Of a stretch of 64,000 bases of DNA, positions 2,993 through 38,519 are shown piece by piece. A program made the position numbers and the translations under genes. Within the stretch, counting starts at the first letter, position 1, and every line of letters starts with the position of its first letter. The stretch lies in IMG/VR virus record IMGVR_UViG_3300028423_000861, positions 1-64,000 of that record; one strand, given 5' to 3'. A model generated the notes under the pieces. The model had not been told where the DNA came from, did no database searches, and saw only the letters and a list, made by a program, of their open reading frames with translations. Source of the stretch: a virus.

Positions 2993-3244
2993 CTATTCTT
3001 GCTCATCTTGAATAATGTTCTCCCAACGAAAACTGCGCCACGCACCTTTATCAACGTCCCAGACACTTTGAACGGCAGGATTTTCTTTGCGCGTTTGTTT
3101 GTAGTTGCTTTCTTCCTTTTGTGGAAGATATTGTTCGTTAAGTGTGCAACGCATGTCTCTACGCTCACCATTCACTTTGGTAAAGCTCACAGTGGTTACA
3201 CCTTCATGAAGTTCTTTAAGAATTTTTTCTTTCATTTCAGTCAT
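2993..3244 (-). CDS. WYL_2 / Sm-like SH3-barrel small protein
   Basis: VSFTKVNGERRDMRCTL...VWDVDKGAWRSFRWE pattern typical of T4-like WYL_2 proteins; ends in TAG. Confidence 0.8.
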   Translation of the reverse strand: MTEMKEKILKELHEGVTTVSFTKVNGERRDMRCTLNEQYLPQKEESNYKQTRKENPAVQSVWDVDKGAWRSFRWENIIQDEQE

Positions 3245-3681
3245 ATATTACTCGATAATTTTCTCATTGTCAATGATTGGTAGTATGAATCCATGTATTC
3301 ATAAGGATCCATGGAATGGTGTCCAAAGCATCTAATGTATATTATGAAACTAATTGATTGACTGTCGTAAAAAGAATCGAATTCTAACTCGAAATAATCA
3401 TTATTTTCTATTGCCCATTCTTCAATAGGATCATCTGGCCAAGTTGGAAATAAATCATTCATAATATGAGAAGAACATTTACTATAAACCTGATTCATTT
3501 GTTCTACTAGTTTTTTAATATACTGCATTGAACTTATATTATAGGGATTTATAGATTCTTGGTATTCTCCCCAATTGATATGGCCGAGATGATTTTGGTT
3601 TACAAACAGATGACATCTATTTGTATTGTATGGATCGATTAGCAATTGGTCATTGTATAATCGAGATCCTAAGAATTTCAT
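3241..3681 (-). CDS. Hypothetical, member of C-terminal MxKL family
   Basis: ATGA-coupled ORF; ends YYQSLTMRKLSSNI. Confidence 0.65.
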   Translation of the reverse strand: MKFLGSRLYNDQLLIDPYNTNRCHLFVNQNHLGHINWGEYQESINPYNISSMQYIKKLVEQMNQVYSKCSSHIMNDLFPTWPDDPIEEWAIENNDYFELEFDSFYDSQSISFIIYIRCFGHHSMDPYEYMDSYYQSLTMRKLSSNI

Positions 3682-4229
3682 TCATACATTCCAAGTTTTG
3701 TAAGCACAAATGCTTCACCCCAAGCCTTTTCATACTCTTCTGGCGAAATATTGTCAATAGGGGCTTTTACTGTAAGAAGTAGAGCATAATCCAAGTGACC
3801 ATTGTCGCTGCCAGTAAACCATTGTCCGGTCATCCAATGTTTATCATGAACACTGTCTAGCCATTCTTCATGCGGACCAGTCGGCCACATATGAGAAACA
3901 CGTTGTCCAATAGGAACATGCTGTTTATCCATTGTGTAGTCTTTTATGGATTCGCAAAGACGATCCATATATTTGTCAGTTTCCTGAACTGTGGGAGATT
4001 TTCCGATTTCAGCAGCGGCTACTTCTTCAACCAGTGTTTTGGGTATGCGTTGTTTGATCTTAAAGATAGTAGAAACGTGCTTCTTCCCTCGTTCATCCAA
4101 TTCAATTGTTGGATGAGAATAATGTATACGTTGACCAGACATGGAATATACGAACAAGCTACTCCACAATTGGTTGATGTTTGGCTTTGTGTCGTTCTTT
4201 CTGACTGAATTTGCTAGATTCAACGACAC
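3678..4229 (-). CDS. Hypothetical, member of C-terminal MxKL family
   Basis: Ends WGEAFVLTKLGMYE. Confidence 0.65.
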   Translation of the reverse strand: MSLNLANSVRKNDTKPNINQLWSSLFVYSMSGQRIHYSHPTIELDERGKKHVSTIFKIKQRIPKTLVEEVAAAEIGKSPTVQETDKYMDRLCESIKDYTMDKQHVPIGQRVSHMWPTGPHEEWLDSVHDKHWMTGQWFTGSDNGHLDYALLLTVKAPIDNISPEEYEKAWGEAFVLTKLGMYE

Positions 4230-4544
4230 CCCCTCAATGTTAGCTTTCCGCTACCATATCTTCTCGGATAGTTAGGATGAGGACTGTTTTCAACAATACT
4301 TCTCATTTCATGATCAACTACTGGAACGCAAACATATTTTTGATTATATGTTTCGCTGCGCCCGTTGTTACGTTCACAGCTCAAAACCCGCAAACATTCA
4401 CTATGGCTAATATGCCAGCTCATTTCTCGAGTGCTAGTGACCTCATGGCTTACCGCATTATAGCCAAGCAAGACCAACATGTATACAAGACCGGAACCAC
4501 TCATCATAGATCTCCTCTCTGGTTTCCAATCTTATAATAAACGA

Positions 4545-5009
4545 TTATTTCTCTTTGTCAAATACATCGAACATGCTTGTATCAATACCACCCAGCTTCA
4601 TCATGGTAAGAAACTCATTATACTGTTCACGCAAGGACTGATTTTCTTCTAGAATTTTTCTTGCATGTTCAGTCTTTAAATCCAATGACGTTAATTTGTA
4701 TGACATTTTATCACACGCATTCGAAAAATGTTTTACCTTATCATTTAGTTTTGATATTTCATCCTTTGATGACGCTAGAGATTCTGCCGTGTCCTGGTCA
4801 ACTTGTAAAATCCATTCAGAATCATATTCATAATATGTTTCATATGATGATGAGTGATCGAATCGAACATCCTGGCTTCTATTTTTGATATAGATATCTT
4901 TAACAGTTATATTATGATGTTCTAATTTATTTCGTATATGTCTGATTACATAATCAAATTCATATTCCCTCTCGGGCCCATCCACATAACTGGAAATTCT
5001 ATAAGGCAT
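4545..5009 (-). CDS. Hypothetical coiled-coil protein, MxKL family
   Basis: Ends LREQYNEFLTMMKLGG... Confidence 0.65.
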   Translation of the reverse strand: MPYRISSYVDGPEREYEFDYVIRHIRNKLEHHNITVKDIYIKNRSQDVRFDHSSSYETYYEYDSEWILQVDQDTAESLASSKDEISKLNDKVKHFSNACDKMSYKLTSLDLKTEHARKILEENQSLREQYNEFLTMMKLGGIDTSMFDVFDKEK

Positions 5010-5932
5010 CAGATATTCTCCAACTCAATCATCGTTGCTGCTAGATTGATCTCAGGATCGGCAACTTGTGTGTGTTTAACCATGCCATTACGTATGATCA
5101 CAATTGCGGCATCTTGATCTTCGTCACTCGAACCAAAAAAATCAAGGTTACGATAGAGGAATTTATAAATGTCATCAAAATCTTCAGGAGTAGCATTGTC
5201 ACAAATAACTTGCCGTGCCTCGCGCAGTTTGTTTTCACGAAACAAACCAACCATTTGCAAACGCCAGTCACTTGCAAGATCGTCACTGGCATCAGGAGGA
5301 GCCAAACGACCATCCGTAACATTCTGTTGCACACTATTGATGGTTTTGCGGAGGTCTGGATAGGTAGCTCGAACATAGCTATCAATGGTGTCTAAATCGA
5401 CTTCCACGCCCTCTTCGAGAAGTATCTCTGCTACTCTTGTAGTAAAATCTGTTTGATCCTGGTTAGTAATATGAAATTCTTGTAGACGGCTCTTAACGGC
5501 CGGAATGATTCTGTTCACATAATTGCATGTAAGGATAAATCTCACAACACTGTGATATTCCTCCATAACACCACGCAGTGCTGCTTGGCCGTTAGGTGTA
5601 ATATAGTCTGCCTCGTCAAGCAAAATAATTTTGAACTCACCCCAGGGCATTGTGCTGGCAAAGCGGGTAATACGATCACGGATAAGTTCAACACCATTGT
5701 CCCTACTTGCGTTAATGTAAAGAACATCAGCGTCTTCTACACCCAGGTCGTTAATCAAAACTTTTGCGAGCGTGGTTTTGCCTGTGCCAGCACTACCATG
5801 AAATAACAGATGCGGGATACTCCCGTCTGAAATCCATTGCTCTACTTGCTTGCGCTGTCTCTCGTCCTTGAAGACGTATTCTGAGAGTGTCTTAGGGCGA
5901 TACTTCTCAACCCATAGGTGTGATGCTGCCAT
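5009..5932 (-). CDS. Sliding clamp loader subunit (T4 gp44 / RFC small subunit-like)
   Basis: LWVEKYRP, PHLLFHGSAGTGKTT, INAS, ILLDEAD, QAALR, FILTCNY, SRL motifs; start taken at MAASHLW. Confidence 0.95.
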   Translation of the reverse strand: MAASHLWVEKYRPKTLSEYVFKDERQRKQVEQWISDGSIPHLLFHGSAGTGKTTLAKVLINDLGVEDADVLYINASRDNGVELIRDRITRFASTMPWGEFKIILLDEADYITPNGQAALRGVMEEYHSVVRFILTCNYVNRIIPAVKSRLQEFHITNQDQTDFTTRVAEILLEEGVEVDLDTIDSYVRATYPDLRKTINSVQQNVTDGRLAPPDASDDLASDWRLQMVGLFRENKLREARQVICDNATPEDFDDIYKFLYRNLDFFGSSDEDQDAAIVIIRNGMVKHTQVADPEINLAATMIELENI

Positions 5933-6601: not shown

Positions 6602-6996
6602 TAGAGATCCTTTACATCCATGCTTCCATCATCGTATTCGATTTCGATATATTTTGTTCCATTATCACGAACTTTGGTATCGCGACGAATTTCCTTGGGT
6701 TCGAGCCCAGACGCTTCAACCTGCTCACGACGTTCTGCTTTTTTCTTTTCTTCTTTATCTTCTCGTGGTGCACCAGGTGCTTCACTTAGCTTCTTTTTTT
6801 CTGGTGCTGTTTTGGTGTCATGCACTTGTCGTGACCTTGCCTGCACAGTTTCCTTTACATTTCCGCTGCTATCAAGGCGGTCTCCGCGGGCATTCATTTT
6901 GATATTGCCAGGAGATACTGCTTGACGTTCTTCGTTTGCTTTTGCGAGCGCAGACATATCGATTACTCTGCCTTTTGCTGTTTTTACTTGCTTCAT
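6601..6996 (-). CDS. Hypothetical phage protein
   Basis: KTAKGRVIDMSAL...GNIKMNARGD; coupled to groES. Confidence 0.75.
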   Translation of the reverse strand: MKQVKTAKGRVIDMSALAKANEERQAVSPGNIKMNARGDRLDSSGNVKETVQARSRQVHDTKTAPEKKKLSEAPGAPREDKEEKKKAERREQVEASGLEPKEIRRDTKVRDNGTKYIEIEYDDGSMDVKDL

Positions 6997-7505
6997 TTAA
7001 GAAATTCCTTGATGTCTAAATCATACAACAGTGAGTCTACTTTGTGTATCCCAATTAAATACAACACATATGAACTAACACTACTCCCACGACCTACTCC
7101 CCATATTTTATTATGCTCCCGCATTGTATCCACAAAATATGTAAGCCATTTGAGAACAATGAGCATGTCGCGGTTATTAAATTCATCTAGCTCATATAAA
7201 ACTCTGTTTTTCTGTTGATCTGTTTTGCATTTACTTAGCAGATAACTCTTGACATCTAAATTTTGATATTCTTCTGGCAAACGCCAGTCTGATAAGTTAT
7301 CGCGTATAAATTGTTCTTGCTCTTTGTGGCTTTCGGTCGACCATTCTATTACAAATGGAAGTCCAAACTCTTTACAATTCTTATTGAATTGGTCGACCCA
7401 GCCCGACTCGTCTACTACGAGATTATTCACTTCATCACCTTTATATAGAATATCGATCATGTCGTCTTCTGTAATAACGACCTGATGTAATTCATTGGTC
7501 TTCAT
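6993..7505 (-). CDS. Stand-alone DNA polymerase III alpha (DnaE) fragment
   Basis: RVLYEL...WGVGRGSSVSSYVLYLIGIHKVD resembles the DnaE GPGRGS..GS.V.Y.LGIT.VDP motif. Confidence 0.85.
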   Translation of the reverse strand: MKTNELHQVVITEDDMIDILYKGDEVNNLVVDESGWVDQFNKNCKEFGLPFVIEWSTESHKEQEQFIRDNLSDWRLPEEYQNLDVKSYLLSKCKTDQQKNRVLYELDEFNNRDMLIVLKWLTYFVDTMREHNKIWGVGRGSSVSSYVLYLIGIHKVDSLLYDLDIKEFLK

Positions 7506-8328: not shown

Positions 8329-8679
8329 TTAAAAATTTATTGAAACACCACATCCACAGCCTGCTTTGGCCATTGGATTATTAACTTCAATGTGGCTACC
8401 TGTGATGTCTGTTAGATAGTCTACATGCGATCCTACAAGGAACATTAGACTCGCGCCGTCCACGGCGAATGTGAAATCATCATATTCAGTGATTTCATCG
8501 TCTTGGTATAGTGCATCTCGATCGTCTAGTATATCCCAAGCATATTGGAAACCAGCACAACCGCCCCCTTCTACACCAAATTTTACAATTTTTCCTTTGG
8601 CAATATTTGCAAAGTGCTGTATTGCCGCGTCACTCATCACCACCGGTTGGCTATCGGCGGGCATCGTGAAGTCTGTCAT
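8329..8679 (-). CDS. iscA: Fe-S cluster A-type carrier (IscA/HesB/ErpA)
   Basis: GGGCAGFQY and C-terminal NP.AKAGCGCGVS. Confidence 0.93.
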   Translation of the reverse strand: MTDFTMPADSQPVVMSDAAIQHFANIAKGKIVKFGVEGGGCAGFQYAWDILDDRDALYQDDEITEYDDFTFAVDGASLMFLVGSHVDYLTDITGSHIEVNNPMAKAGCGCGVSINF

Positions 8680-9013: not shown

Positions 9014-9313
9014 TTACAAAAGGCCCAACTCTAACTTTCCTTCTTCGGATATCTTGTCCGGGCCCCATTCCGGTTGGAATGTTATTTCAACTTCGACATC
9101 TTCCGCTCCGGCCGCTTCACAAACTGACGTGACATCGCTAATAATCATATCAGCAGCAGGACAGAACGGACTGGTCAAAGTCATAAGGATTTCTACGTTG
9201 TCCCCTTCTTTAACGGTGATATCATAGATCAATCCAAGATCATAGATATTGACGCTGATTTCAGGATCGTATACTTCCTTAAGTCTATTTATGAGATCGT
9301 CTTTAGTCACCAT
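9014..9313 (-). CDS. DUF59/MIP18 (SufT-like) Fe-S assembly protein
   Basis: VYDPEISVNIYDLGLIY, MTLTSPFCP, FQPEW. Confidence 0.92.
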   Translation of the reverse strand: MVTKDDLINRLKEVYDPEISVNIYDLGLIYDITVKEGDNVEILMTLTSPFCPAADMIISDVTSVCEAAGAEDVEVEITFQPEWGPDKISEEGKLELGLL

Positions 9314-10289
9314 GATAATGTAATTTGAGCATGGTATAATGCTCTTCATCCTTTATTCTGATTTTAGTTCTGTTGTCCGTGCTAGACGGAGGGTGTATCC
9401 ACCTGTTATTTTCAAATTTTGGGTATCCTTCATAATCACTGAATATATAATCTATTCTGTGTGTTAGTCCTAATTCAGTGGATAGTTTTTCTGCAATTCG
9501 TTCCCTAAGAACAAATCCCATTGTAGAAAATAAGTCATTAGCACTACTTGATAACATCTCGGAACAAAAATATTCAAAAACAATTACACGATCGAATCCC
9601 TCTCCAGATTTTTCGATCCATGTACTCTCGATTTTTAAATCAATTTTTTCGTATTCGGATGTCAACTATAAATCATCTTAATAATTGCTGATCTTTCAGC
9701 ATCAAATACAAATAGCCCAAATGAAAGTTTAAGGAAAGAAATTTCAAAATAGGCAGGTATAGTTAATTGCACATATTTTGCAACATCATGTCCTATGTCT
9801 TCTTCTAATGTATCTAATATAAATTTTTTCTGATCCAGTGAATGGTATGGAAATATTGCATTGCATAGAACCAACATTGAATACTCATCATACTTGCCAC
9901 GCAAGGTCGTATCATACCTGTTATGGTTGGTTATAAGAAAATTCCTGTCCCTCATAGGCAATCTTAAATAGCGTCAAGCTTTCCTGGTCTGGAAAGCAAA
10001 TAATATATTCAATGCTATTTAACAGATTTGGTCTCACACTTACCAAGATGCCGAGCTGCTCTTTAAGTTGTTTTTCAATTAGACAAGGAACACGCAATTG
10101 TTCCTTGTCCTTGTATTGATTGCCAATTTTTGCAATAATTTCTTCGTCAATTTCAGAAGTTAAGAAGTCTTTTGAGAGAAACATACTCGTGATTCTGATT
10201 GAAACTTGATTCTCTTCCAAATAACGATTTGTTTTATTAGTATCTAGAAGTTCAAAGTTTGCAGTCAATCTGTTTTCATCATCACTCAA
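9303..10289 (-). CDS. Three small AT-rich hypothetical ORFs (9303-9665, 9662-9961, 9921-~10289), MxKL family
   Basis: C-termini DEEHYTMLKLHY, AERSAIIKMIYS, DQESLTLFKIAY. Confidence 0.6.
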
Positions 10290-10782
10290 AAAGATTTTCC
10301 TTCCATTCTCTATGACCTTCGCGATAGGCCATGTTACTCTGTGTTTCGCGAACTTCAACACGGAAGCACCATAGACGCTCGGCTTCGCTAGGACCCCAAT
10401 AGTCGGGAATATATACGCCGTTGACATACTTGTAAAGCATATCAGCAAGACCTTCGCAGCCGAGTTTAGGCAACACTGTGAGTTTTGCTAGCTTTTTTTG
10501 TTCGAGTAGTTGGAAAGTTTCAAATTCTGGATCATCTTCTGCTACAAGTAGAGTATGATCGAATTGATCTTTGAGAACACTTTTAAGCTCTTTAAGACCT
10601 CCGTAATCGGCTACCCAGTTTCGAATATCCAAGTCGTTTGTGCCAAAGTGAAACTTCATGCTAAAACTATAGCCATGGATTAGATTACAGTGACTATCGG
10701 CTCTCCATTGACGATACGCACACGGAAACTCGTCGTGGTATTCTTTAGTGCTAACGTATTTGTATGTTACTGGTTGGTTCAT
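10282..10782 (-). CDS. queD: 6-carboxytetrahydropterin synthase (QueD/PTPS)
   Basis: HCNLIHGYS, DYGGLK, FDHTLL, GCEGLA, VEVRET; start taken at MNQPV. Confidence 0.92.
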   Translation of the reverse strand: MNQPVTYKYVSTKEYHDEFPCAYRQWRADSHCNLIHGYSFSMKFHFGTNDLDIRNWVADYGGLKELKSVLKDQFDHTLLVAEDDPEFETFQLLEQKKLAKLTVLPKLGCEGLADMLYKYVNGVYIPDYWGPSEAERLWCFRVEVRETQSNMAYREGHREWKENLFE

Positions 10783-11173
10783 TTCTTTAGTGCCTCCCCG
10801 GCAAAACGTATTTTTCGACCGATGACAACACGCCAAGGCTTGTTTTCTTCAATCTCAAAGTTTTCATTGATTTGAGGCAATTCGCTGAAAATTAGCATAT
10901 AATCATGTATGTAACAGTTGCTAAAATCATAGTCCATAAGGCTTTCGCCATCTTCCACCACTCTTGTTTTGCATTCAAACTGATTACCTTCATCGTCTGT
11001 CATAACAGGCGACAACGCATAGCCCTTGCATTCGAGTTGTGATGGCAATGGTAGTTGCGCAATGCCATAGTTTGGGCCATGAAATGCAGTATGAGACCGC
11101 CCTGCAGTCCTTTTTTCATTCCATTCATCATAATCTGTTGTGTAAGAATTATTCATCTCTATCTCCATCTTGT

Positions 11174-11411: not shown

Positions 11412-12029
11412 TTAGGTTCTTTCGGTGAGGATGTCATCTGCAAGACCCCATTCAATTGCTTGTTCTGCATCTAGGAACGTATCGTGTTTCATTGTCTCAG
11501 ACATTGTCTTGAAGGTCTTTTTCTTGCTGTTGTGCTTTACATACAACTCGGTGAGGCGATCATTAATCTTCTTGCTTTCCTCGAAATGTCTTCGTGCATC
11601 TTCAAATTCAAGCTCTTGAACATAAACACTGCCGCTCGTTCCTGGTGTTCCCGAGCTCACCCGGTGGATCATTGTGCGGCTATTGGGCAGCACAAAGCGT
11701 TTGCCCGCCGCGCCAGCCTGTGCTAGAAAGCTTCCCATGCTGGCCGCCTGGCCAACGACGACTGTTGCTACATCTGGTTTGACGTATTGCATCGTATCAT
11801 AAATCGATAATCCTGCGGTAACAAGACCACCAGGACTATTAATATACATGGTAATGTCTTGCTCTCCTTCAGCTTCAAGGTAAAGAAGTTGACTCACAAT
11901 AAGGTTTGCCATGTTGTCTTCAACCGGCCCATTGAGCATAATAATACGCTCTTTAAGAAGGCGACTGTAAATATCATAGGCACGTTCGCCTTGCGACGTG
12001 CGTTCAACTACCATTGGGACTAGTGTCAT
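11412..12029 (-). CDS. clpP: ATP-dependent Clp protease proteolytic subunit
   Basis: LVPMVVE...[29 protein letters not shown]. Confidence 0.97.
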
Positions 12030-12340
12030 TAATCTGTTCCTTTATAGCAATGAAAATTAAATGAGGGTTCTGGATACATTGTCTTAAGGTAAATTATATG
12101 TTGATCATCAAATACCTTAAGTATTGCATATGCATAATCATATTCTGAACCGTGTAGATACTGAATTGAGTATATATCTGATATTTCATAATTCTTTGGA
12201 TATATTCCTAGAGAACTGAGCCATTCAGATAACGACTGACAGACAATTTTTTTGCAATCTGTATCAAAGTAAAATTCAATCGGCTCATAAAAATAAACAC
12301 TAACATAATTCTTTGATGTAGTTACTCCGCGTATTTTCAT
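12029..12340 (-). CDS. Hypothetical, MxKL-like family
   Basis: [12 protein letters not shown] near the C-terminus. Confidence 0.55.
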
Positions 12341-12873: not shown

Positions 12874-12915
12874 TGTTTATCCTTTTGTTTAATATATACA
12901 AAATGCCCATGCATG

Positions 12916-13847
12916 TCAAACACTTATTTGATAATCTATTAGAGGTTGAAACATGAGTTTAAGCATTGTTCTGGCTTCTTGGCTGTGAACAAATATCTCG
13001 CATTGGTTATGTTGAAAAGTTGAAACTGTAAACCACAAATTGTTTTCTTCAAGCCAGTTTGTAATAAAGTTAAAACATTCCCATTTTTTATGCATTGAAT
13101 CAACGTCATGCCACACAAAATAAACCATCTCAGGACGATTATAATCACAACAAACATAAACACGAACACTGTCTATTATATCTTGCTCTGTAAAATTGTT
13201 AATCTGATTCATTGTGAGTCACTAGTCACCATTGTCTTCTAGATCCCAACCGAGTTTTGCCATCACAAATTTTTCTTCACTTGTGAATGTTACTATTATA
13301 GGCATTCTTGATGTCTTCCACCGCATAAAATTATACGGCGGAATGGTATAATCTTCATTTAAGAATAAATCACGATCTTCCATGAAATCTTGAATTTCAC
13401 TAATGATAACAGCTTCGGGCTGATCTGGAAAATTGAGTCGCAATGCTACTGCGCCATTTTTTATCGGTCTTCCATTGGGCCACGAATCCCATAGCTCTGC
13501 ACTGCGAATGTTCCCATTTGAATCTTTGAAGCTTTCGAATTTAAGACGCATTTTGGCCATTATAGCACCATTTTAGCCATGATGAAGGTTTCATCATCAT
13601 AAAATACAACTCGTTTTAAAGGCTTGAGATCGGTATTTGGTGAAAACGTATAAGGATGTTCGTGAATTTTAAAATCTTGACCTTCGACAAAACCAGCTTC
13701 TGTAAGGCGGCGCCTCGCCTCTTGTCCTGAAATTTCAAGTTCTCCTGAGCCAAACAATTTTCCTTCTCTCGATACGTTTGGCACTGCCCAGCCGCCAGTG
13801 CTTCGCATGGGGCAATGATCGGCGTCGAGAAACTTGAACGTCTTCAT
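12916..13847 (-). CDS. Three small hypothetical ORFs (12916-13212, 13222-13560, 13560-13847), MxKL family
   Basis: C-termini SQEARTMLKLMF, SEEKFVMAKLGW, DDETFIMAKMVL. Confidence 0.65.
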
Positions 13848-18774: not shown

Positions 18775-19116
18775 TTAATCACCCTTGCCTGGGTTTTCGC
18801 TAAAATATTTCATTTTACCTTCAACGGCATGCCAGTCCTCGGCATCAGACGGCACGTCTTCAGGTCTTACTTGTGTGATATTTGGCCAGACTTCAGCCCA
18901 TCTGTCATTAAACTCGGCCCATTGTTCCATGCCTGGCTCTGTATCTGGAAAGATAGCGTCTGCAGGACATTCAGGCTCACAAACCCCACAATCAATGCAT
19001 TCATCAGATTTAATCACAAGCATGTTCTCCCCCTCATAGAAACAATCCACAGGGCACACGCTCACACAATCCATGTGTTTGCATCTAATACAAGCATCGG
19101 TTACAACATAGGTCAT
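18775..19116 (-). CDS. fdxA: 7Fe ferredoxin, alphaproteobacterial FdxA type
   Basis: [35 protein letters not shown]...[12 protein letters not shown]...FSENPGKGD. Confidence 0.95.
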
Positions 19117-19542
19117 TATTATTGCCTTTTCTTTATTTTTTCTTGTGGTTTTTCGGAGGTAGACGGTCAAGAGTCCTGTGGACACCTTCCATGAGTTCTT
19201 CCATGAGAAAATCCTAATTACTGGTCTTGTTCAACTTGCTGTCTTAGTGGTCGTGATCGTGGTTCGCCTAGCTCTTCTGAGTCAATATCATTCAAGCGAT
19301 ATTCCTCGGGCACAGTTTCGTCCATTGAAATTATACCACTGATGCGATACCATTTATTTTTCACTTCAATAGCACAGACGTTGTCTGAAAAGCAAATGAT
19401 TTGTGGTTGGTCAATTAAATCTTCTGGAACCATTTCACTAAGTGACTTAACCTTTAGTGCTAGAAAAATAGACACGGTGGTCGGAATAACCATGAGAGCA
19501 ATCACAAGTGCTTTTCCAAACACCCGCACCGTTAATGAGTTA

Positions 19543-19899
19543 TCAGATTGTCTCGGATTCTCCATTTTGATCCTCAATATTTTGACAAAGCTTTAATGCA
19601 ACTTCAAGTTGTCCTAAAGCCTCAGCAACTAGAGGATATTTATCTGCCATTTCAAAAAGTTTTTCGGACTGATTTATGGATTCAATCATTTTATCAATAG
19701 CCATCTCGGCGTCGATATCCAATGCGAACCCAGGAGATGAAACTGGCTCCCATCCGGTAGTTGTATAAACGACCATACTGCCAGAATTTTCATCATACAT
19801 TACTGTACCATATTGTGCAGAAGTTGGCAGACATCCTCCGTTACCAACATAGACAACGGAGGATGGCATGGATAAAATATATTTTCCATTAGGTGTCAA
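19543..19899 (-). CDS. Hypothetical; ALGQLEVALKL paralog group (start uncertain)
   Basis: Shares C-terminal helix with 21603-22061 and 22061-22510. Confidence 0.6.
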   Translation of the reverse strand: MTPNGKYILSMPSSVVYVGNGGCLPTSAQYGTVMYDENSGSMVVYTTTGWEPVSSPGFALDIDAEMAIDKMIESINQSEKLFEMADKYPLVAEALGQLEVALKLCQNIEDQNGESETI

Positions 19900-20536
19900 T
19901 TTTGATAGTCTCCAATTCAGCAAGACATATAAACCTGGTTCCATCTATTACTTGGTCGCGGCTATGATGCCAATGTCCAAAAATCCAGATGTCTGGCTTG
20001 TGCATGGACCACATTGATCCTAGAGCTTCACGAGTCCGACTTGGATATTCTTTCCTATACCAAGGAAATAGCTTCCAGACAACATCCTCAGGACATTCAT
20101 GTGTGACCATGATGCGCGGTTTAACGCTCTCATAGACATCAATAGCACAATGAAGATCATTGTAACTGAGTTCTTCATCAGGCCACCAGTCTTGATCACG
20201 AACTCTCCATTCCTTGTCGATGCTATCAGCACCTCCAATAAACATCATTCCAGTGTCTTGCTCATAAGAGATGTCAGGTATAAAGAATCGATGCTCTGCG
20301 CACTCGCCTGGGTTGTCATGATTGCCCCGGATATAACGGTTATCACCCCCACCTTGAGTTTCCATAACGTGCTCAAGGGTATGAACGACTCGTTGCATAT
20401 ATTCACTTTCTTGACCAAGAAACCCCCAACCAAAGTCACCAACTTGAATGCTGCGCTCAGGCTGTTCTTTCTCGAGAATATCCTGATAATCTTTCCACTT
20501 CCCGTGGATGTCACCAATGAATAGTATTTCAGTCAT
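19889..20536 (-). CDS. Calcineurin-like metallophosphoesterase
   Basis: GDIHG, VGDFG, RGNHD, VTHE, FGHWH. Confidence 0.93.
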   Translation of the reverse strand: MTEILFIGDIHGKWKDYQDILEKEQPERSIQVGDFGWGFLGQESEYMQRVVHTLEHVMETQGGGDNRYIRGNHDNPGECAEHRFFIPDISYEQDTGMMFIGGADSIDKEWRVRDQDWWPDEELSYNDLHCAIDVYESVKPRIMVTHECPEDVVWKLFPWYRKEYPSRTREALGSMWSMHKPDIWIFGHWHHSRDQVIDGTRFICLAELETIKIDT

Positions 20537-21020
20537 CTTTTGTCTTCTGTTTCTTAATGGTGTAGCTGTCAGCTACAAGGGGCTCGAGCAGTTGTTCGTT
20601 AGGATCAAAATCCGGCAGTTCACCTTTCCAATTGTAACACACTGTGATATGAGGTCGATAGTCTGGCCATTCGTCTTGCATATTATATGCGCGGCCGTAT
20701 GACTCGCGGATTTCATACAATCCCTTGCCCTCGACTTCCATTACGAGTATATCTTTGTTTTTGCCAAAAAGCTCAAAGTTGGTTGGACGAACTTCGATAT
20801 TGCAATCATAGGTATCATTTTTGATACGGTGGTCAGTTGTAGTAAACCAAACAGTTGTGTGAAATTCAAAATTTTCTGGATCTTGTCGTGTTCCGTCCCA
20901 CTTGTATGACAGGTCGAATCCGTTTTGCTCGCAAAATTCTCTCAAATAACCTTGTGTCACGGGATTATAAATCACACTAATGTTTTTCTTTTCCTCGGGC
21001 AAAAAATCATTTTCATTCAT
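20529..21020 (-). CDS. 2H phosphodiesterase, T4 gp57B / anti-CBASS Acb1-like
   Basis: Two HxT motifs: EFHTTVWFT and WPDYRPHITVCY. Confidence 0.8.
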   Translation of the reverse strand: MNENDFLPEEKKNISVIYNPVTQGYLREFCEQNGFDLSYKWDGTRQDPENFEFHTTVWFTTTDHRIKNDTYDCNIEVRPTNFELFGKNKDILVMEVEGKGLYEIRESYGRAYNMQDEWPDYRPHITVCYNWKGELPDFDPNEQLLEPLVADSYTIKKQKTKDD

Positions 21021-21602: not shown

Positions 21603-22510
21603 TTATTTGCCATTGTCAATGTTTTCATGTAATTTGACAGCAGTTTCTAGCTCTCCAAACGCATCCTTGATCATTTTATGATTATTGCAAAGATCTTTAA
21701 ATTCAGAATCATTTTTGAGATATTTTAAAATACGCTGAGTGCCAGTCATAGGTTGAAATTTATAGATGTTCGAGGATTGATTATAAAGTTGATAATTTTC
21801 ATCATAAACTTCAATTTCCTTCGTTCCAGTAATCATGTCGAGTTCAATCCAACGCATCTTGGCTTTTGTGAGGCTTTTGTGATTAAGGGAGTCGCGTGGT
21901 CTGTCGAAACCTCGCTCACCGCATAATTTGCATTTTGTCCAATATACATCATGATATTCAGTTCTTTGAGTGTCTGTATATGTTGTGTTAAACCCACAAT
22001 CATAAGCAACATTTTTCCAGTCATGTTTGCACTTTTTTTCTTTACTGAACAACCCAAGCATTATTTTTTATCCTGTGATTGATTGTTCAGATGTAGCTTA
22101 ACAGCCACTTCCAATTGGCCAAGAGCGTCTTCGACCATCTTGTGTTTTAATAGCTCTGACATTTCGTCATCTTTCTTGAAGGCTTTAGCCCATTCCTCGA
22201 ATCCACGTAGCGGAGCATACTCAGGATCTACATATGTGATTTCTTTTGGATCTTTTGGTGAACGGATATAACTCGCATGTATCCATTTACTCCTCAGCTT
22301 TGCAACCGTGGTATTTCCTTCTTTTGCATAGCTGCGGCCCCCCTCTGTTGGATCATCATATTCCATCCGACGCTCACCACAACAAGAACAGACTTGATAT
22401 AGAAGTATGTGAGAAAAACTTGTTTGGGGATCTCGTTTGTAATACCACTCAATACCAGAATCAATTGCAACTGTGTGCCATTTGTGTTTGCATTTAAAAA
22501 GACTAAACAT
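21603..22510 (-). CDS. Two tandem paralogs (21603-22061, 22061-22510) with CKHxW and CxxCGER motifs
   Basis: KCKHDW/KCKHKW, CKLCGER/CSCCGER, DAFGELETAVKLH/DALGQLEVAVKLH. Confidence 0.7.
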
Positions 22511-22643
22511 ATCTATATATCGGATCCTTATTATAATCTGGTGACATTTTAAACATAATGAATGGTTCGCTGATATAATGATAGATAAAATTATTACAAC
22601 GAGAATTTCCATTAAAACAGAATAGCATGTTTTGATATGGTGT

Positions 22644-22673
22644 CAAGAGGAGGGCGGTTCCACCCTCCTCTTG
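22644..22673. terminator. Intrinsic terminator-like hairpin after nampt
   Basis: CAAGAGGAGGG/CCCTCCTCTTG 11-bp stem; overlaps the TTGACA box of the next promoter. Confidence 0.75.
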
Positions 22674-24616: not shown

Positions 24617-25669
24617 TCAGAGCATCTCCATAATAATTGAATAGTGGTCCTCGAAAAGCAATTGTGGATTTTCTTTCACAAAGCTGATCGGATACCATGC
24701 AGCGTCGATCGCATCGTCTCCGCCTTTTACTCGAAAAAGTGATTTCCCATCAGGGAATTTGAATCTAAACGCTGTTGTAAGAGTAAACCCTCTGACAGAA
24801 CGACTCGGATCATCAAATCTTCGCTCTTCACCCGTGTAAAAACCGCGAAGCTTACCACGTGGAATTCGACCTCTTTCATCCTGGATGCCTGCTTCTTCCC
24901 AGAGTTCATAGAGAACGTTTTCGAAACTGTCTCCTTTGTGAGGATCAACAAAACCACCAGGTAAAGCCAACTGTCCCTTACCTGGGAATCCGCCCCGTGT
25001 AACAAGAAGAATGTGACCCATTTGGGTGCAAACAGCGTCACACGTAATGAACGTAGGTGGGAACGGGCTGTTCGCCCAGCTTTCTTTATATGCATCCATC
25101 CATTCTTTTTCTTCCAAAACATAACGGAATTCTTCTTTTTCATAGAATTCCACGAGGTATTCTAGGACTGGCTCAGGAACCAATCTAACCGGAAAGTGCG
25201 GAGCTCTCTGGAAATAATTTTCACGAATTTCAGTCGCGCTAAGAGTAGCGAACCCTCGCTCCATCATGATTTGTTCGGCATTCGGGAAAAGATCTAGGTA
25301 ATAGCTACTGGCATCTTTCTTGTATCCAATGATACCAAGAGTGTCATCTTTTGACAAGTGTTTGTCAACGGCTGCATAGACATTGCCGAGCCATTCATCG
25401 TCATTTCCAGGAACATCGGGCAACGGTTCAACGTATACACGAGAGATATCACCGTCTCGTGCATTGTGATCGTGTCGGAATGCTTCCTCGATCATGCGCT
25501 CACGTTCTTCGAATGTCCAGGGATTTTTGAATGAGCGAGCTTTATTGCTCCCTCCGACTAGGACGACCACTCGTTCAGCGTGTTCAAGTCCAAAGTCAAT
25601 TAAGTGTTTGTGTCCCATATGAAATGGCTGGAACCGGCCGATCAGAAAGGCTGTGCTTACCTTTGTCAT
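24617..25669 (-). CDS. nadM: Bifunctional NMN adenylyltransferase / Nudix ADP-ribose pyrophosphatase (NadM-Nudix)
   Basis: GRFQPFHMGH, KNPWTFEER, SATEIR, LALPGGFV, ELWEEAG, GGDDA, FEDHY. Confidence 0.95.
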   Translation of the reverse strand: MTKVSTAFLIGRFQPFHMGHKHLIDFGLEHAERVVVLVGGSNKARSFKNPWTFEERERMIEEAFRHDHNARDGDISRVYVEPLPDVPGNDDEWLGNVYAAVDKHLSKDDTLGIIGYKKDASSYYLDLFPNAEQIMMERGFATLSATEIRENYFQRAPHFPVRLVPEPVLEYLVEFYEKEEFRYVLEEKEWMDAYKESWANSPFPPTFITCDAVCTQMGHILLVTRGGFPGKGQLALPGGFVDPHKGDSFENVLYELWEEAGIQDERGRIPRGKLRGFYTGEERRFDDPSRSVRGFTLTTAFRFKFPDGKSLFRVKGGDDAIDAAWYPISFVKENPQLLFEDHYSIIMEML

Positions 25670-25712
25670 AACAAACTCCTTGTTATCTATATCTTGCAAA
25701 CTCTCCGCTTGC
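25668..25712 (-). promoter_or_regulatory. Tandem GGAG(A/U)-loop hairpins upstream of nadM-nudix
   Basis: GCAAGC-GGAGA-GUUUGC and AUAACAA-GGAGU-UUGUUAU(G), the second covering SD and start codon. Confidence 0.7.
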
Positions 25713-25838
25713 GTCCTTATTTATCATACTACATTATTGATTCAGTTTAGTCATTACGAATTTTTCACCCATAACGTCTTGGATATTCTTTCGGGTTCTT
25801 TGCCAGGAATCCAAATAGAACGATTTCGAAAACAGACA

Positions 25839-28806
25839 TTAAAATCCAACACTTACCGGGCCGCGATGTGAAACATAATATCCAAGATCATCAACCGTGT
25901 TAAAAGAAGTCAATCCGCTTTGGAATGCACCCATTTTGAACATCACGAGTATTTCGGATATTTGTTCTTTTAACCACATCATTTCACCACGCTTTAAGCC
26001 CTGGCGGCCTCGAAAACGAACATCCACTGCCCCGGTCCGAGAAACCCTCGCAACAACAGCACAATGATCTTTATCAGTAGGAGTATACCAATTGATATCA
26101 TCTCCAAAGCTGATTTCATAAATTGTATGTGTTTTGATACGGTTTTCTTCGTCTTGTTTCAATTCTCGCACAAAGACATCACCATTGGCGATTGATCTTT
26201 CGATAATAGGACGCAAGATTTTAGTTTGTCGTCCTTTTTTCTTCCCCATCATACATTCCCATCTTGAACATTACTGTATATTCAGAACTGATATCAGCAA
26301 TATGTTTGCTGGCTTCATCGGTTATATCTTCTGTTTTAAGATTAATTCTCATACGATTATTAAGAACACGATCACTTGTGTTGTAGATAATCCAATCAAG
26401 TCTCCAGTATTCAATTTCTGCAAATCTAACAAAATAGGAATAATACGCTCCCCTGTCAGAAATCAGAACCTTGTTGTCCTGAAAAGATTTCTTGATTGCC
26501 CGCGCCACCGATTGAGAACGAACACCTGTATGATCATAACTTTGCATATCAAATCGTCATCTTGTGCATTACCCAGAGCTCGTGACTGAGTTTATTAACA
26601 TAACCAATAGAGGTATGGCTCATAGGAACACTTCTTAAATTCCATTGTGAGAACCCATCTATTACACAGTCTTTTCTGGTTACGTGACTATTTACATCTG
26701 TAGCTACGAACCATTCAGTCCAAATGTTTCCATCATCACGACAATGCCAATATAGATCTGCTCCATATTTACTAAACATATCATTAACAAAAAATCCGAT
26801 AACGCCTGTGTATGTTCTTACATCATGCTCGGGACCCAGTTCTATTTGTCCATGATTAAACACTTGCAACTTGTCTGAATTCTGAAGAACCCTGTTTAGG
26901 AACATGCGATCATAACGAATGTCTTCGATAAATTTAATCATTGCCAAGCTTTTGCATTATCTGATATTCACTCAGGGTTTTAACCAGCCACTTATGAGTT
27001 TTAAAACTCACTGTAACTGCTACACCGCCGTGGACTATGATAGTATGAGGTCTATAATTAATCTTGTTGGGTGTAAAAATAATTCTTGCAATTTCTTCAG
27101 TTCTTAGAAATTGGGTATCAGCATACGGAACAACTCTGTCAACCAATGCCATCCATCGATTGTCATCAAGCCGATAAAAATCGATAGTATTATCTTTCAT
27201 GGCACGATTAACAGCACAGCGGACAAAACTGTCAGTGTCTTTGAAATCGTTTATAGTGGATTGTTGGTATGGGTTGTCTTGATTCATATTGAAGTTACAG
27301 ACATGTCATCGTTATCGTCATGGACAAATTTACCCTCGAGCTTGGCCATGGTAAGAATTTGCTCAGTATAAGGACGAAAACGATTCTTGAGAGCTTGAGA
27401 TTTCACCTTGCGCACACTGGCTGGGCTGCTACGCTGATGGAAATCGCGAGCAAGATCACCATCTTTGTCGATTGTAAAACCGTAACAACGACCCAAGCCG
27501 TCACGAAATTCAACCATGAGCTGTGATGATCCAGATGACCAATCAGTGTAAATTTCGGTATCATAGGAATTATCATCCCAAGCTTTTAAAAATGCCTGAT
27601 ACATGTGGTTTCTTTGTTGATGATACCCTTTGATCACCAGAACCCATATGGTTGCATATACTGCAAAAACAAGACCAAGCAAAACTAGTAGTGTAGTAAA
27701 CATTAAATCATCCTCAAATTTTCCCGTTCTTCAGGAGTTTTATATAGGTGTCTATCGTGCATAAAATATCCATCTTCTGGACATCTTTTATCATAATGGA
27801 AATTCATAATGTCTCGAAAATGATATCGAAACGGGTCGCCTTCTTCATAATTATAACCATCGGTGATAAGGCTGTCACCGCTGATTTTAGCCATTACATA
27901 TCGTTCATTTAGAACTTCCTGCAAATCATGGTATGACTTGTCTTTGTTAAGTAGGTAAGGACAGATGGTATCACGGAGATACCCAGTGTAGCTGTCGGGG
28001 AGAAACCACACATACATATAATACCAATTAAATTTAGGATTGGATTTTGGATTGTTTATGTTTCGGAAAAGCAGTATAAATTTTTTATTTTCGGGTTTGT
28101 TCATACCACTGTGGTATCGAAATCCATCTGACATGTTTTCTAGAAAGACATTATCCGACTCTACTTGTCGGATAATGTCGCTCATATTAATTGTAGCCAT
28201 GTTCTTGCGTGTCATTTGCTACCCTTCTTGGGATCGAAAACAAACGTCTGTAAAAATACTTTACCCATTTGCTAATTTCCACAGCGTATATGTCTCATCT
28301 GAAATTTTCATAATTCGTTTTCTTTGTTTACGAGACATGGGATAATGTTCAGTGTCGTTGATTAACATATAACAAGACTCGAATTTTTGACTAACAGGAT
28401 CATATAACCATTCAATATGATCAAATTGAAATTTGTAAGTATTGTTTTTTAGGTGTTTGAGAATTTCATCTTTGGGTTCTGTGCCAAGATATTTACAATG
28501 TTCAAAATTCAATTCAGCTGTCTTGGATTGAACCTCTTGCAAAGATAATTTCAATGCACTCATATGAGATTTCAAACTGTCTGGAGGTAAATACTTTTTC
28601 TTTTCATTGAGCATTTTCGCTCTGGTTAATTTTATAATATTGACATTTTGATGGTTATTAACAACACTGTCAACAATATTTTTTGTTTTGAACCGTCTAA
28701 AGATCTGTTTAAATAACCAGAGAAATTCTTTGGAATCGAGTAACACAGCAAGACTGAAGGACACGCCAGCCACTATAAGGCTGGCGATCAAAAAATCAAG
28801 TATCAA
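25839..28806 (-). CDS. Run of seven hypothetical ORFs of the MxKL family
   Basis: 25839, 26221, 26549, 26934, 27284, 27703 and 28261 carry SEILVMFKM, SEYTVMFKM, HELWVMHKM, SEYQIMQKL, EQILTMAKL, NERYVMAKI, DETYTLWKL. Confidence 0.7.
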
Positions 28807-29282
28807 GGTTGTTGTTCCACGTTGAACACGAACGTGCCTCGCTCCTTCCACATACGAACAACACGGTCACGGTCTTCGAACACCATACTGATCGGCTTGT
28901 TGTATTTTTTCTCGAGACGATCAGCATGAAGACGTTTTTGTTCTACATCCGGCGTGTGCTGGTCACCTTGCTTGAGAAGAAGTTCGTCAGGCAGTGGCAG
29001 ACCATTACGCTGGAACCAATCCACAGTCATGTCATACACTGCATGATCACGCCCGCTGAGAACAACCACAGTCACATCTGGGTCATTTACAAATTTGTGG
29101 TAAAAGTATGCGACTTCGTCAATCAGTCCGTCATCCACACATGCAGCATGGAACAGGTCAAAACGGCGCTTGACCTTTTTACCTGTCTCAGGATCAACAG
29201 CCGGATCTGGCCGGATATGATGCATACGATGACGCACGTCAGCCAGCGTTCCGTCAAGATCAAAAATCACAAGCATGATCAT
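28803..29282 (-). CDS. HAD phosphatase, PNK 3'-phosphatase-like (T4 PseT C-terminal half)
   Basis: FDLDGTLAD, LSGR, DVEQK, FEDRDRVVRMW. Confidence 0.88.
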   Translation of the reverse strand: MIMLVIFDLDGTLADVRHRMHHIRPDPAVDPETGKKVKRRFDLFHAACVDDGLIDEVAYFYHKFVNDPDVTVVVLSGRDHAVYDMTVDWFQRNGLPLPDELLLKQGDQHTPDVEQKRLHADRLEKKYNKPISMVFEDRDRVVRMWKERGTFVFNVEQQP

Positions 29283-34680: not shown

Positions 34681-34730
34681 ATCTCCTTTGCTTACATGTT
34701 CAATATAAGCAAAGTGTCTTGGTAAGTCAA
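34681..34730 (-). promoter_or_regulatory. Early promoter/RBS cassette (copy 3)
   Basis: TTGACTTACCAAGACACTTTGCTTATATT...GTAAGCAAAGGAGAT. Confidence 0.85.
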
Positions 34731-35422: not shown

Positions 35423-35775
35423 ACGAATATTTATCTGGGATAATTACCGATCATACATTCGCTAACGAGCAAGCGGGCGAGCTGATCGTAATACGGACTC
35501 TCTTCAACAGGACCACGATGTTCAAGAACAAGAGAACGCAGATCTTGAATTAGATCGAGGCGCTCTTGATGAGAATCACGTTTTGGTTTTGCGGTATCGT
35601 TCATTACGGATCTTTCGAATATTTTTGGCACGTCTTTTAGCAATCGCACAACGAACCTTGGGATTGGGTTGACGGTTGTAATAGTCATACCATTGCTTAA
35701 TATTAGAGAGATGCTGACCCAGCCATTCTGAGTCAGCAGCAAAAAAGATGATTAGAAGTAGAAGAAAAACTTCCA

Positions 35776-36129: not shown

Positions 36130-36283
36130 TAAGCTTTCTCCACTTTGAGATCGTAAAATTTATCCTGGACAACTTCCATTCGTTCAAGACACTCACGACG
36201 TGTGCCGCGCATCAGTTCATTGCGCGCGGTGCCAGTGAGATGGCTGAACATGGATTTATAAGTGAGTTTATACATTTTCCGTT

Positions 36284-36331
36284 TCTCCGTTGCTACCCTT
36301 TAAATATAACCGAAGTGTCTTGGTATGTCAA
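36284..36331 (-). promoter_or_regulatory. Early promoter cassette, divergent copy
   Basis: TTGACATACCAAGACACTTCGGTTATATT...GGAGA. Confidence 0.75.
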
Positions 36332-36339
36332 CAGATTTT

Positions 36340-36714
36340 TCACTCGTCTCCGTATCTCTCTTTGAGAGTTTCAAGAAGAGCAAGTTCACGTTGTCTTTTT
36401 TGTTCAGCAGCCTGGCGATATATTTCCATGCGCTCCTGGTATTCTTCGTCAGTTTCTTCACGATACCCCAATACGAATGTAGTGATAATTTCATCACCTA
36501 CAATATCATAGTCTGTATCAACTTCAATTTTGAAGTCAGAATATTGGTCACCGTATTCTTTCTCAATACGATCCATTTCCTCTCGGAGGTCATTGAAAGT
36601 CATACCACCGTATTCGAGGTTAAAATCTTCTTTGATTTGATCGCCGCGTTTAGACGTCCACGTCACAAAATGCCAATCGGCAAGTTTGGGTTCAGGCTTG
36701 CGCTTACGCCCCAT
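36340..36714 (-). CDS. Hypothetical, paralog of 38520-38873
   Basis: REETDEEYQER...LKERYG versus RLEDDREYQSR...LKKKFG. Confidence 0.7.
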   Translation of the reverse strand: MGRKRKPEPKLADWHFVTWTSKRGDQIKEDFNLEYGGMTFNDLREEMDRIEKEYGDQYSDFKIEVDTDYDIVGDEIITTFVLGYREETDEEYQERMEIYRQAAEQKRQRELALLETLKERYGDE

Positions 36715-37162
36715 CTGAATTGTCCTCTAGTTTACTGCGTCTTTTGACTTGAATATCTGTTCTTTGTTCCTGAGCGATTTCTTGTAGCTTACCACGAATT
36801 TGTTCAACAGTCCATCCGTCAGGAGGACGCCAGAGAACAATAGCTGCCTCTAATGGCATATGCTCTCCGAACAACTCCTCCATTTCCTCTATTGTGATTC
36901 TATTATCAGTCATCCATTCGAACTCCATAGAACTTCATGAGATGCCAACAGGCAGAATCAGGAATCTTGTCTTCGTATGCACCGACTGAAAATTTCATAT
37001 GGAAATGACAAATTGCTTGGTCGGAATGTTCATAACCTTTTGGATTGGCCCACTCAGCGTCGACAAAACGCCCGTCTTGAGTGAGTTCTTTCCAGTAATA
37101 ACGAGTATAAGGAACCATGGTTTCTCCGATCTATTGTAACAACGATATTGCAAGAATACAGA

Positions 37163-37723
37163 TCAGTCAACGTATTCTTGCAATAGTTTTTCAACATACC
37201 ATTCGGGAGCATCTCCAAGATCCCCGTCGGGCATTCCTGGAACGTTCACGACGTGTGACGTTGTTCCTACCCGTGCAAGCTTGTGACCAGCTCTCCCAGG
37301 GTCACACACAGCAACGACTGGGCGCATTTGCCGCACACACATTAGCCAGTTACGGGTGCTTGTGCTTGGGTCGTTGCTGAGAACAGCGATAGCACTCACT
37401 CCGAGTTCAGTTAAACGAGCAGCGTCAAAGATGCCTTCAGTAACAAACAGAACTGTTGAACGATACCAGCTTTCAAGGCCCCATACAGTCACGCTCTTGC
37501 TGTGTTTGGGTATCAGTTTTTCACCACGAAACGTGTAATAGCGGCCACGTTTATCGTTTTTTTGAACTTTGCTTGCTTCGGGACGATATGCCTGATATCC
37601 TACCATCTGTCCACTAAGGTTCCAGAGAGGAAAACAAGCCACATGTTCAACATCGTCAACCCAGACATAGTGTAGACTGGTATCAACGTGGCGTTCGTGG
37701 ATATGTTCAAGCATTGTTGTCAT
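37163..37723 (-). CDS. Small Toprim (DnaG primase-like) protein
   Basis: LFVTEGIFDA, VAVCDPGRAG, DGDLGD. Confidence 0.75.
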   Translation of the reverse strand: MTTMLEHIHERHVDTSLHYVWVDDVEHVACFPLWNLSGQMVGYQAYRPEASKVQKNDKRGRYYTFRGEKLIPKHSKSVTVWGLESWYRSTVLFVTEGIFDAARLTELGVSAIAVLSNDPSTSTRNWLMCVRQMRPVVAVCDPGRAGHKLARVGTTSHVVNVPGMPDGDLGDAPEWYVEKLLQEYVD

Positions 37724-38519
37724 ATATTCACAGTAAGACGTCTTGGTAGAGATGTCAACCGCTATTATTGACAGAGAAGATTAATTTTGCCATGGTTAAT
37801 TGTTCGAAATCCAAAGGGAAAGTGTAGTATCCATGTATGAGTCTCATATCACCTAATTTGAGATTAATCCCGTAGTCTTCTAATACACCAATATTTTCAT
37901 GATAATCAACATAATTAATAAAACAAATTGTATTGTGTTTCAAAAACATTATGTAATCACCGGCTTCTTATTGAGAATGCGGCGGTCCGGATATAGTGGC
38001 TCCCCTTGTCGAGCAAAATCAGCAACAGCTTGAGGATCTTCCTCAGCCCACGACTCTAGGTCTTCAGCAGTGAACTCTTCACTGAGTTTCAAAAGCCAGA
38101 CTTCCATGCGGCGAGCTTCATTGTAACGTGCACGTAGTTGCATCATGCTCAGAATAGAAGACACGGTTTCAGTAGTCTTCTCACCAGCCATTTTCTCCAT
38201 GATGTTTCGTTGGTCAATTTCAGTGAGATTGACAATGGCCTCGAATCCTTCATTCGAGAACGAAAAAACAAAGACGTTACCACCTGACATTATTCACCTC
38301 CAACAGGGCGTAGAACCTTTTTAAATGTGTGATCATTCTTGCGGAATTTAACAACACAGTCAAATCCCGCAGTCTTGCCTGGTTGTGCAGTGCTGGGAAA
38401 CATGTAGGTATAAACCCACCATTCAGTGTCCTCGTCCAGCGTGTCTGCAAGTTCTGGGTTGACAAAAAGGCCTGGGAGTTCATCCCAAGCCTCTTGTCCG
38501 AGTCCGTGATATCCGTTCA

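Follow-up and report, generated by a model that had tools for sequence, protein, structure and literature searches.

A conserved terminal helix defines a clade-restricted set of small-protein families in a T4-like marine phage contig

A terminal helix shared by small phage proteins

The virus contig IMGVR_UViG_3300028423_000861 (141,983 bp, 41.6% GC content), which comes from an uncultured marine T4-like phage of a KVP40-related lineage, encodes a series of small proteins that carry the same short helix at or near their C-termini. We analyzed the first 64 kb of this contig (hereafter, the window), along with the rest of the contig and related phages. The proteins constitute a real, new, and clade-restricted gene family, or set of families, defined by the conserved terminal helix.

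An initial annotation of the window had listed 18 such peptides, and all were found in the minus-strand open reading frames (ORFs) to which they had been assigned. Sixteen of the 18 fit the strict pattern [EQ]-x-x-[TVI]-[ML]-x-K-[LMI], while those of 9662 and 12029 are relaxed forms (proteins are named here by the first coordinate of their ORF). We counted 18 strict matches in 284 ORFs, chosen greedily from the 141,983-bp genome, as compared to 0.92 ± 0.90 in 300 composition-preserving shuffles (maximum of 4 matches). Restricting the count to the last 28 residues leaves 15 strict matches, as compared to 0.15 in shuffles. Because the pattern was defined after inspection of the data, and on one genome, its replication in an independent genome provides the strongest statistical support. 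This independent relative (G006) is a 159-kb IMG/VR contig whose cytidylyltransferase is 76% identical; it has 15 strict matches (0.9 ± 1.1 in shuffles), 14 of which are located 19 residues or fewer from the C-terminus.

The motif lies 2–59 residues from the C-terminus in the members, and the aligned view extends the shared element to ~16 residues. The element starts at the end of a strand or helix with one hydrophobic residue (position -6), continues through a Ser or Asp cap (-2/-1) into an amphipathic helix of the form E-x-hydrophobic-[T/V/I]-M-x-K-[L/M], and finishes with Gly (+8) and a hydrophobic residue (+9). Met is kept in 19 of 22 aligned motifs. Identity over the eight motif residues averages 59% in 13 ortholog sets, versus 33% for other columns (Wilcoxon p = 6e-4), and the motif is among the best few 8-residue windows in 10 of these sets. 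A functional surface common to the members would be expected to produce such a contrast between the motif and the remaining sequence. A six-frame scan added two tiny ORFs carrying the motif (22503–22646 and 25734–25814), and beyond these just two matches fall outside coding frames.

The motif element is under selection at the protein level. Third codon positions in the motif vary as freely as codon usage permits, with AAA used 12 times and AAG 9 times for Lys, and with five different Leu codons and four different Thr codons. Such free synonymous variation indicates that selection acts on the protein, and it counts against the alternative that the signal acts at the level of nucleic acid or translation (as a promoter, a ribosome-binding site with start codon, or a nascent-chain stalling peptide), the peptide being a by-product. 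This alternative draws on the location of the motif at gene ends, which also hold early promoters and the start of the next gene. In 3241, the Leu-Thr codons spell the TTGACA of a promoter-like site, and Met-Ala-Lys resembles a start context, as seen at the true start of the gene at 24617–25699, which reads EFVMTKV in frame. That string consists of a Shine-Dalgarno sequence plus ATG, and its Glu is one codon nearer to Met than in the motif. In most members, the sigma70-like matches fall downstream of the motif and do not overlap it; the motif matches are in the coding frame of called genes, save for the four six-frame cases above; and a distance of 2 to 59 codons to the stop is too loose for a stalling peptide. 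The promoter, ribosome-binding-site/start, and stalling-peptide readings were therefore rejected. A DNA-level signal is thus largely refuted, and we consider it very improbable.

Members of the family

The members in the window, along with the gene for a phage ClpP that lies among them, are as follows.

3241..3681, minus strand, 146 amino acids: QSLTMRKL, 4 amino acids from the end; P-x-EEW family, paralog of 3678
3678..4229, minus strand, 183 amino acids: EAFVLTKL; paralog of 3241 over its full length
4545..5009, minus strand, 154 amino acids: EFLTMMKL, closing a long predicted helix; coiled-coil-like head
9303..9665, minus strand, 120 amino acids: EHYTMLKL; α/β sub-family
9662..9961, minus strand, 99 amino acids: ERSAIIKM, relaxed; strict motif in orthologs of related phages
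9921..10448, minus strand, 175 amino acids: ESLTLFKI; member
12029..12340, minus strand, 103 amino acids: QHIIYLKT; doubtful, divergent member
12916..13212, minus strand, 98 amino acids: EARTMLKL; one ortholog form has R for K
13222..13560, minus strand, 112 amino acids: EKFVMAKL; α/β sub-family; modelled, with the motif as helix 95–104
13560..13847, minus strand, 95 amino acids: ETFIMAKM; α/β sub-family
22503..22646, minus strand, 47 amino acids: EPFIMFKM; extra tiny ORF from the six-frame scan
25734..25814, minus strand, 26 amino acids: ends in EKFVMTKLNQ; extra ORF from the six-frame scan
25839..26252, minus strand, 137 amino acids: EILVMFKM, 30 amino acids from the end; SEILVMYRLG in the G006 ortholog
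26221..26547, minus strand, 108 amino acids: EYTVMFKM; PHAVMAKL in the G006 ortholog
26549..26947, minus strand, 132 amino acids: ELWVMHKM; member
26934..27287, minus strand, 117 amino acids: EYQIMQKL; member
27284..27703, minus strand, 139 amino acids: QILTMAKL; N-terminal hydrophobic (membrane-type) segment
27703..28215, minus strand, 170 amino acids: ERYVMAKI, internal, 59 amino acids from the end
28261..28851, minus strand, 196 amino acids: ETYTLWKL; N-terminal hydrophobic, membrane-type segment
37755..37949, minus strand, 64 amino acids: EQLTMAKL; smallest full member
11412..12029, minus strand: phage ClpP (PF00574, E 1e-62), among the members; context only

Outside the window, further members start at 80765, 95485, 112389, and 136086, and a relaxed one at 114529. 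The last (114529–114780, 83 amino acids) ends in D-Q-E-D-A-V-I-F-K-L-R-W-L, and its closest Atlas clusters are unnamed phage proteins of 80–95 amino acids (scores of 0.90–0.91). The helix type may therefore extend beyond the strict pattern among phages.

The case for 12029 consists of the L-K-T variant kept by its orthologs; this protein has no significant match to the motif or group profiles. No ortholog of 9921 was found in the relatives, whereas 4545 has orthologs in four of them. In 27284, the motif is the best-conserved block in the alignment with the G006 ortholog. The tiny ORF 22503–22646 overlaps the 5' end of a longer ORF (22061–22612) in another frame, and 25734–25814 may be a remnant or a micro-gene. 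An ORF at 37949 also matches the motif, but the match is N-terminal and has no special conservation in the ortholog; this ORF was dropped and is probably not a member.

Relatedness of the member proteins

The initial annotation had described the proteins as unrelated apart from the terminal helix. This description is overstated: 3241 and 3678 are homologous over their full length, and 13222, 13560, and 9303 share a fold, whereas most other pairs of groups match over the motif columns or not at all. Within the genome, the N-terminal parts show no significant pairwise similarity. We built group profiles from orthologs and compared them profile to profile with hhalign. The profiles of 3241 and 3678 (grp15-grp17) match with an E value of 1e-6 over 131 columns, and still with an E value of 9e-6 over 94 columns once the C-terminal element is removed. 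A second set is linked over 36–55 columns with E values of 3e-8 to 3e-5 (grp05-grp06, grp05-grp29, and grp05-grp25), and consists of the families of 13222, 13560, and 9303 and a fourth family absent from this genome. The joint alignment of this α/β set (A2) has a near-invariant Trp, a central helix, and a D/E-aromatic strand, and its full-length profile recruits three or four further groups from relatives.

The remaining pairs of groups are linked over 11–15 motif columns or not at all. These include the coiled-coil-like 4545, all of whose links to other groups run through the motif columns, as well as 12916, 9662, and 12029, and the P-x-EEW proteins when compared with the α/β set. By sequence methods, at least four to five head types cannot be connected, with clear paralogy inside two of them. 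The picture of a constant C-terminal element, of 12–16 residues, on visibly different N-terminal architectures was borne out. Besides the predicted α/β fold, the same helix occurs on P-x-EEW heads, on a coiled-coil-like head, and on two heads with putative membrane anchors.

Structure of the terminal helix

An AlphaFold model of 13222 from its single sequence was unusable (predicted local distance difference test score, pLDDT, of 55), and supplying an alignment raised the confidence to a pLDDT of 81.6 and a predicted template modelling score of 0.73, with all five models within 2 units of one another. The predicted order is two long strands, a helix, a short helix, a strand (amino acids 88–92), and a last helix (95–104). 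This last helix is formed by E-E-K-F-V-M-A-K-L-G, and the block from 91 to 100 has a pLDDT of 95. The motif in the core sub-family is thus, according to the model, the final and well-packed helix of an α/β sandwich of ~100 residues.

This arrangement does not agree with the idea of a free docking tail, as the motif helix in the α/β sub-family directly follows a β-strand and is confidently modelled. The initial annotation had also raised the contrary possibility that the helix is simply the buried last element of one shared fold. The models are in part consistent with this possibility, in the α/β sub-family. The sequence pattern fits that of a capped helix, with Ser or Asp before it, an acidic start, Lys near the end, and then Gly and a hydrophobic residue. 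A Ser or Asp before a helix and a Gly and hydrophobic residue after it are helix-capping features that confer stability generically.

The structural neighbors of the 13222 model are two-layer α/β sandwiches (uL23, ACT domains, RRM, and YggU). Superposition with VIA-align gave Z scores of 4–5 over 75–80 residues (root mean square deviation, 3.5–4 Å), and the best of these (Z 5.1; 3.5 Å; 79 residues) is in the chance range. A Foldseek search of PDB and BFVD returned nothing at E ≤ 0.001 (best E ≥ 0.16), and the Atlas returned ACT-like neighbors at low confidence. Such scores are within the range of chance arrangements, and no function follows from them.

Distribution of the family

Syntenic metagenome contigs were reached through homologs of the phage ClpP that are 81–89% identical. 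Loci of ~20 kb each contain ten (L057), five (L054), three (L058), and three (L061) strict matches. Orthologs in the relatives are 22–58% identical (mostly 25–40%) over nearly their full length, with the motif kept; for the array at 25839–28851, the comparison was with G006 only.

Outside of these close relatives, the searches were negative. None of 24 member proteins has a match above cut-off in Pfam-A or PHROGs. Two members used as queries in word-indexed searches of 5.8 billion proteins matched only themselves. A tblastn search of 50,697 phage records with two members gave no match, and neither did megablast of the seven-gene array. The motif profile was also compared to 1.84 billion representative proteins, and the matches listed comprised proteins of the phage itself, a eukaryotic repeat protein, and a protein resembling translated repeat DNA. 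Nothing else credible was among the matches listed, where members elsewhere scoring ~30 bits would not appear, given the shortness of the profile. Among PDB sequences, the profile gave a single chance match, to leiomodin (E 0.4).

As a positive control, the profile returned 20 matches in its own genome. It had no match at 20 IMG/VR and 26 metagenome topoisomerase II loci of 55–81% identity (most 57–65%), in T4, or in a complete 208-kb relative (G001), which has the single strict pattern match of this set, as chance predicts. The T4 Dmd sequence E-I-T-M-M-K-D was considered and rejected, since it has a different register and does not match the profile. An NMNAT query found no relatives in either of the two collections searched. 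The family appears from these searches to be clade-specific, confined to this phage and its close relatives, and new to protein-family databases.

Genomic setting

The contig, for which CheckV estimates a completeness of ~60%, carries nearly all its genes on the minus strand. Its T4-type large proteins include a split topoisomerase II, the gp44 clamp loader, and RnlA, and its salvage genes for nicotinamide adenine dinucleotide (NAD) encode NAMPT, two proteins of the nicotinamide mononucleotide adenylyltransferase type, and a PnuC-type transporter. The nearest named phages are KVP40-like vibriophages, with ~51% identity in the large topoisomerase subunit, and the related contigs come from marine metagenomes.

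The member genes are AT-rich, as had been noted, with a mean GC content of 36.7% as compared to 42.2% for other small ORFs (p = 6e-6). Their placement between core genes was likewise confirmed, as runs of members occur between conserved early genes. Four tandem arrays are evident: 3241–5009 comes after the clamp loader; 9303–10448 sits between the PTPS gene (10282–10836) and iron-sulfur (Fe-S) assembly genes; 12916–13847 comes after the medium subunit of topoisomerase; and 25839–28851 interrupts the NAD-salvage block.

Sigma70-like promoter matches, searched as TTGAC[AT]-N16-18-TAnnnT, are strongly strand-biased, with 41 in the coding orientation versus 5 in the opposite one, and many are within 1–42 kb. 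The T4-type late promoter TATAAATA has 13 copies on the coding strand, none of which is within 1–42 kb. From the abundance of sigma70-like matches and the lack of TATAAATA in this region, we infer that the members are early genes. A number of the sigma70-like sites (3245–3273, 4534–4561, 12891–12919, 37730–37758, and others) are located within or just past the 3' ends of motif genes, which suggests that many members close a transcription unit right before a new promoter.

Several other features of the region were observed. A homolog of the anti-CBASS protein Acb1 (20529–21020, minus strand; PF23474, 36 bits as compared to a cut-off of 27) adjoins a calcineurin-like phosphoesterase and the NAD-salvage block. 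Phages are known to use NAD salvage in counter-defence, and the proximity of the salvage block to the Acb1 homolog suggests a neighborhood of an accessory or anti-defence kind. An Fe-S cluster assembly protein and a ferredoxin-like protein are encoded in the early region (8329–8679 and 18775–19185). The 170-amino acid protein at 6993–7505 (minus strand) has a match to PF07733, the DNA polymerase III alpha NTPase domain, over a fragment of that domain only, and is kept at the same position in all close relatives. A second paralog family, separate from the motif family, is encoded at 19543–19944, 21603–22061, and 22061–22612 (minus strand). The three proteins share the C-terminus A-[LF]-G-[QE]-L-E-[VT]-A-[LV]-K-L-[CH]-x-N and belong to an 11-protein cluster with relatives; two that were tested have no Pfam match.

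Possible roles of the terminal helix

Our favored explanation, which we consider as likely to be true as not, gives the helix two functions, one in the protein structure and the other as a functional surface that the members share for contact with a single partner while their heads diversify. The members would be several clade-specific sub-families of fast-diverging early accessory proteins, whose numbers appear to have grown through tandem duplications within the variable early regions of this phage lineage. The terminal helix would have been retained as a common surface contacting one invariant partner, either a host or a phage protein, and the heads would diversify against variable targets, as in host-takeover and anti-defence genes. 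A number of points weigh against this explanation. The similarity among N-terminal parts exceeds that of controls only marginally (p = 0.026), which does not establish common descent of all the members, and convergence or module transfer may have given rise to the shared motif. In the α/β sub-family, much of the conservation could be accounted for simply by the packing of hydrophobic residues in a helix that is integral to the fold, and the AlphaFold alignment for 13222 has only 15 rows. Lys is required by the definition of the pattern and is replaced by Arg in two relaxed relatives. The early expression of the members is read from promoter-like matches only.

A serious rival, although we consider it somewhat unlikely, is that conservation of the helix is purely structural, in that the members descend from one small ancestral unit whose terminal strand and helix serve as a folding nucleus and contact no partner. 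The helix is indeed integral and confidently modelled in the core sub-family, its capping pattern is a generic stability feature, homology reaches past the motif in two sets of groups, and the members occur in tandem arrays with a common base composition. What this rival does not readily explain is why the same residues occur on coiled-coil, membrane-anchored, and 150–180-amino acid P-x-EEW heads that are otherwise unlike the α/β fold, and why Met and Lys are so much more strictly conserved than packing alone would usually require. A capsid-loading signal, by which the helix would direct a variety of proteins into the prohead, to be injected later, seems scarcely credible. T-even internal proteins provide the model for such a signal, as they are diverse and share only a short capsid targeting sequence (PMC3012670), and like the members they are fast-evolving accessory or anti-defence proteins. 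Cargo peptides of encapsulins, moreover, are C-terminal. However, the T-even targeting peptide is N-terminal, has ~10 residues, is cleaved by the prohead protease, and belongs to late genes, with its action in head assembly, whereas the motif described here is C-terminal, helical, in part integral to a fold, and associated with early promoters. Encapsulin cargo is encoded beside the gene for an HK97-fold shell, while the members lie among replication, NAD, and early genes rather than head genes. The lack of late promoters in 1–42 kb, the membrane-type segments in two members, and the lack of sequence likeness to either the T4 targeting sequence or the encapsulin cargo peptide also argue against capsid loading.

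The initial annotation had proposed that the constant element docks on a common hub, such as a phage Clp protease. We consider it unlikely that the helix is a docking or recognition signal for a single hub, for instance host ClpX or ClpA working with phage ClpP, and slightly less likely that it is strictly a docking peptide or degron for such a Clp machine, with the members as adaptors or short-lived substrates. The ClpP encoded at 11412–12029 in this T4-like phage is full-length, and by its Pfam match a true ClpP. It is present in every motif-bearing relative fetched, whereas the complete, motif-less G001 has only a weak ClpP-family match and no close homolog. Homologs of this ClpP with 74–89% identity are located on syntenic phage contigs, and one with 79% identity is on a 352-kb contig that is possibly bacterial. 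But ClpP is one of 28 genes that are common to this genome (G000) and G006 and absent from G001, and an 18-kb locus (L060) contains ClpP and no motif gene. Neither AAA_2 nor ClpX zinc-finger domains, which would indicate a ClpX- or ClpA-type unfoldase, were found in the available 142 kb (~60% of the genome). A literature search for phage-encoded ClpP yielded no paper.

The motif also bears a weak resemblance to known ClpXP signals. N-motif-1 signals recognized by ClpX include STAKL of Dps, TNTAKI of lambda O, and TLKV of sigma-S (PMC9775585, table 2), and M-x-K-[LMI], often M-A-K-L, weakly resembles TAKL, TAKI, and TLKV over four residues, in a core of Thr or hydrophobic residue, x, Lys, and hydrophobic residue. 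This likeness is the only link by sequence to Clp recognition. The N-motif-1 core reads polar, Thr or hydrophobic, hydrophobic, basic, hydrophobic. M-A-K-L and M-F-K-M fit N-motif-1 loosely if Met takes the place of Thr or a hydrophobic residue, and the conserved Thr, Val, or Ile then adds a residue, putting the register off by one. N-motif-1 is positioned at the extreme N-terminus, whereas the motif described here is C-terminal or internal. The logic of variable heads and a constant terminal element, with ClpP in the same gene block, is in addition reminiscent of adaptors. Adaptors of the SspB type bind ClpX through a flexible tail at the extreme C-terminus. No such tail after a linker is seen in the core sub-family, where the helix comes directly after a strand (pLDDT ~95) and is packed, as opposed to flexible. 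We regard the linkage to ClpP and the likeness to TAKL-type signals as a lead, and not as evidence.

The closest precedent for docking on a hub comes from eukaryotic viruses. In the ankyrin/PRANC proteins of poxviruses and in viral F-box-like families, the heads that bind targets vary, and a constant module at the C-terminus docks on the proteolysis machinery of the host, with Skp1 as partner. These are, like the family described here, expanded viral families with variable heads and a constant terminus, but they have a defined domain and a specific partner, as compared to an element of ~16 residues in a phage. If the single-hub proposal were true, at least 20 interchangeable adaptors or timed substrates would reprogram host proteolysis or another central machine, and the family would be a phage counterpart of the F-box-like families.

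Significance

Most of the unexplained genes of T4-type phages are found in their variable early regions, and many of these genes prove to be host-takeover or anti-defence factors. In one uncultured marine phage lineage, ~8% of the ORFs are now tied together by one helix. If the members share a partner bound through this helix, the family would illustrate the coupling, in a phage, of diversifying recognition heads to one invariant machine. If it has no partner, the family would be a clean case of tandem paralogs diverging far while keeping a folding nucleus, and a warning against taking every shared terminal motif as a docking signal. One peptide, one bait, and one profile provide an experimental handle on at least 20 otherwise separate orphan genes.

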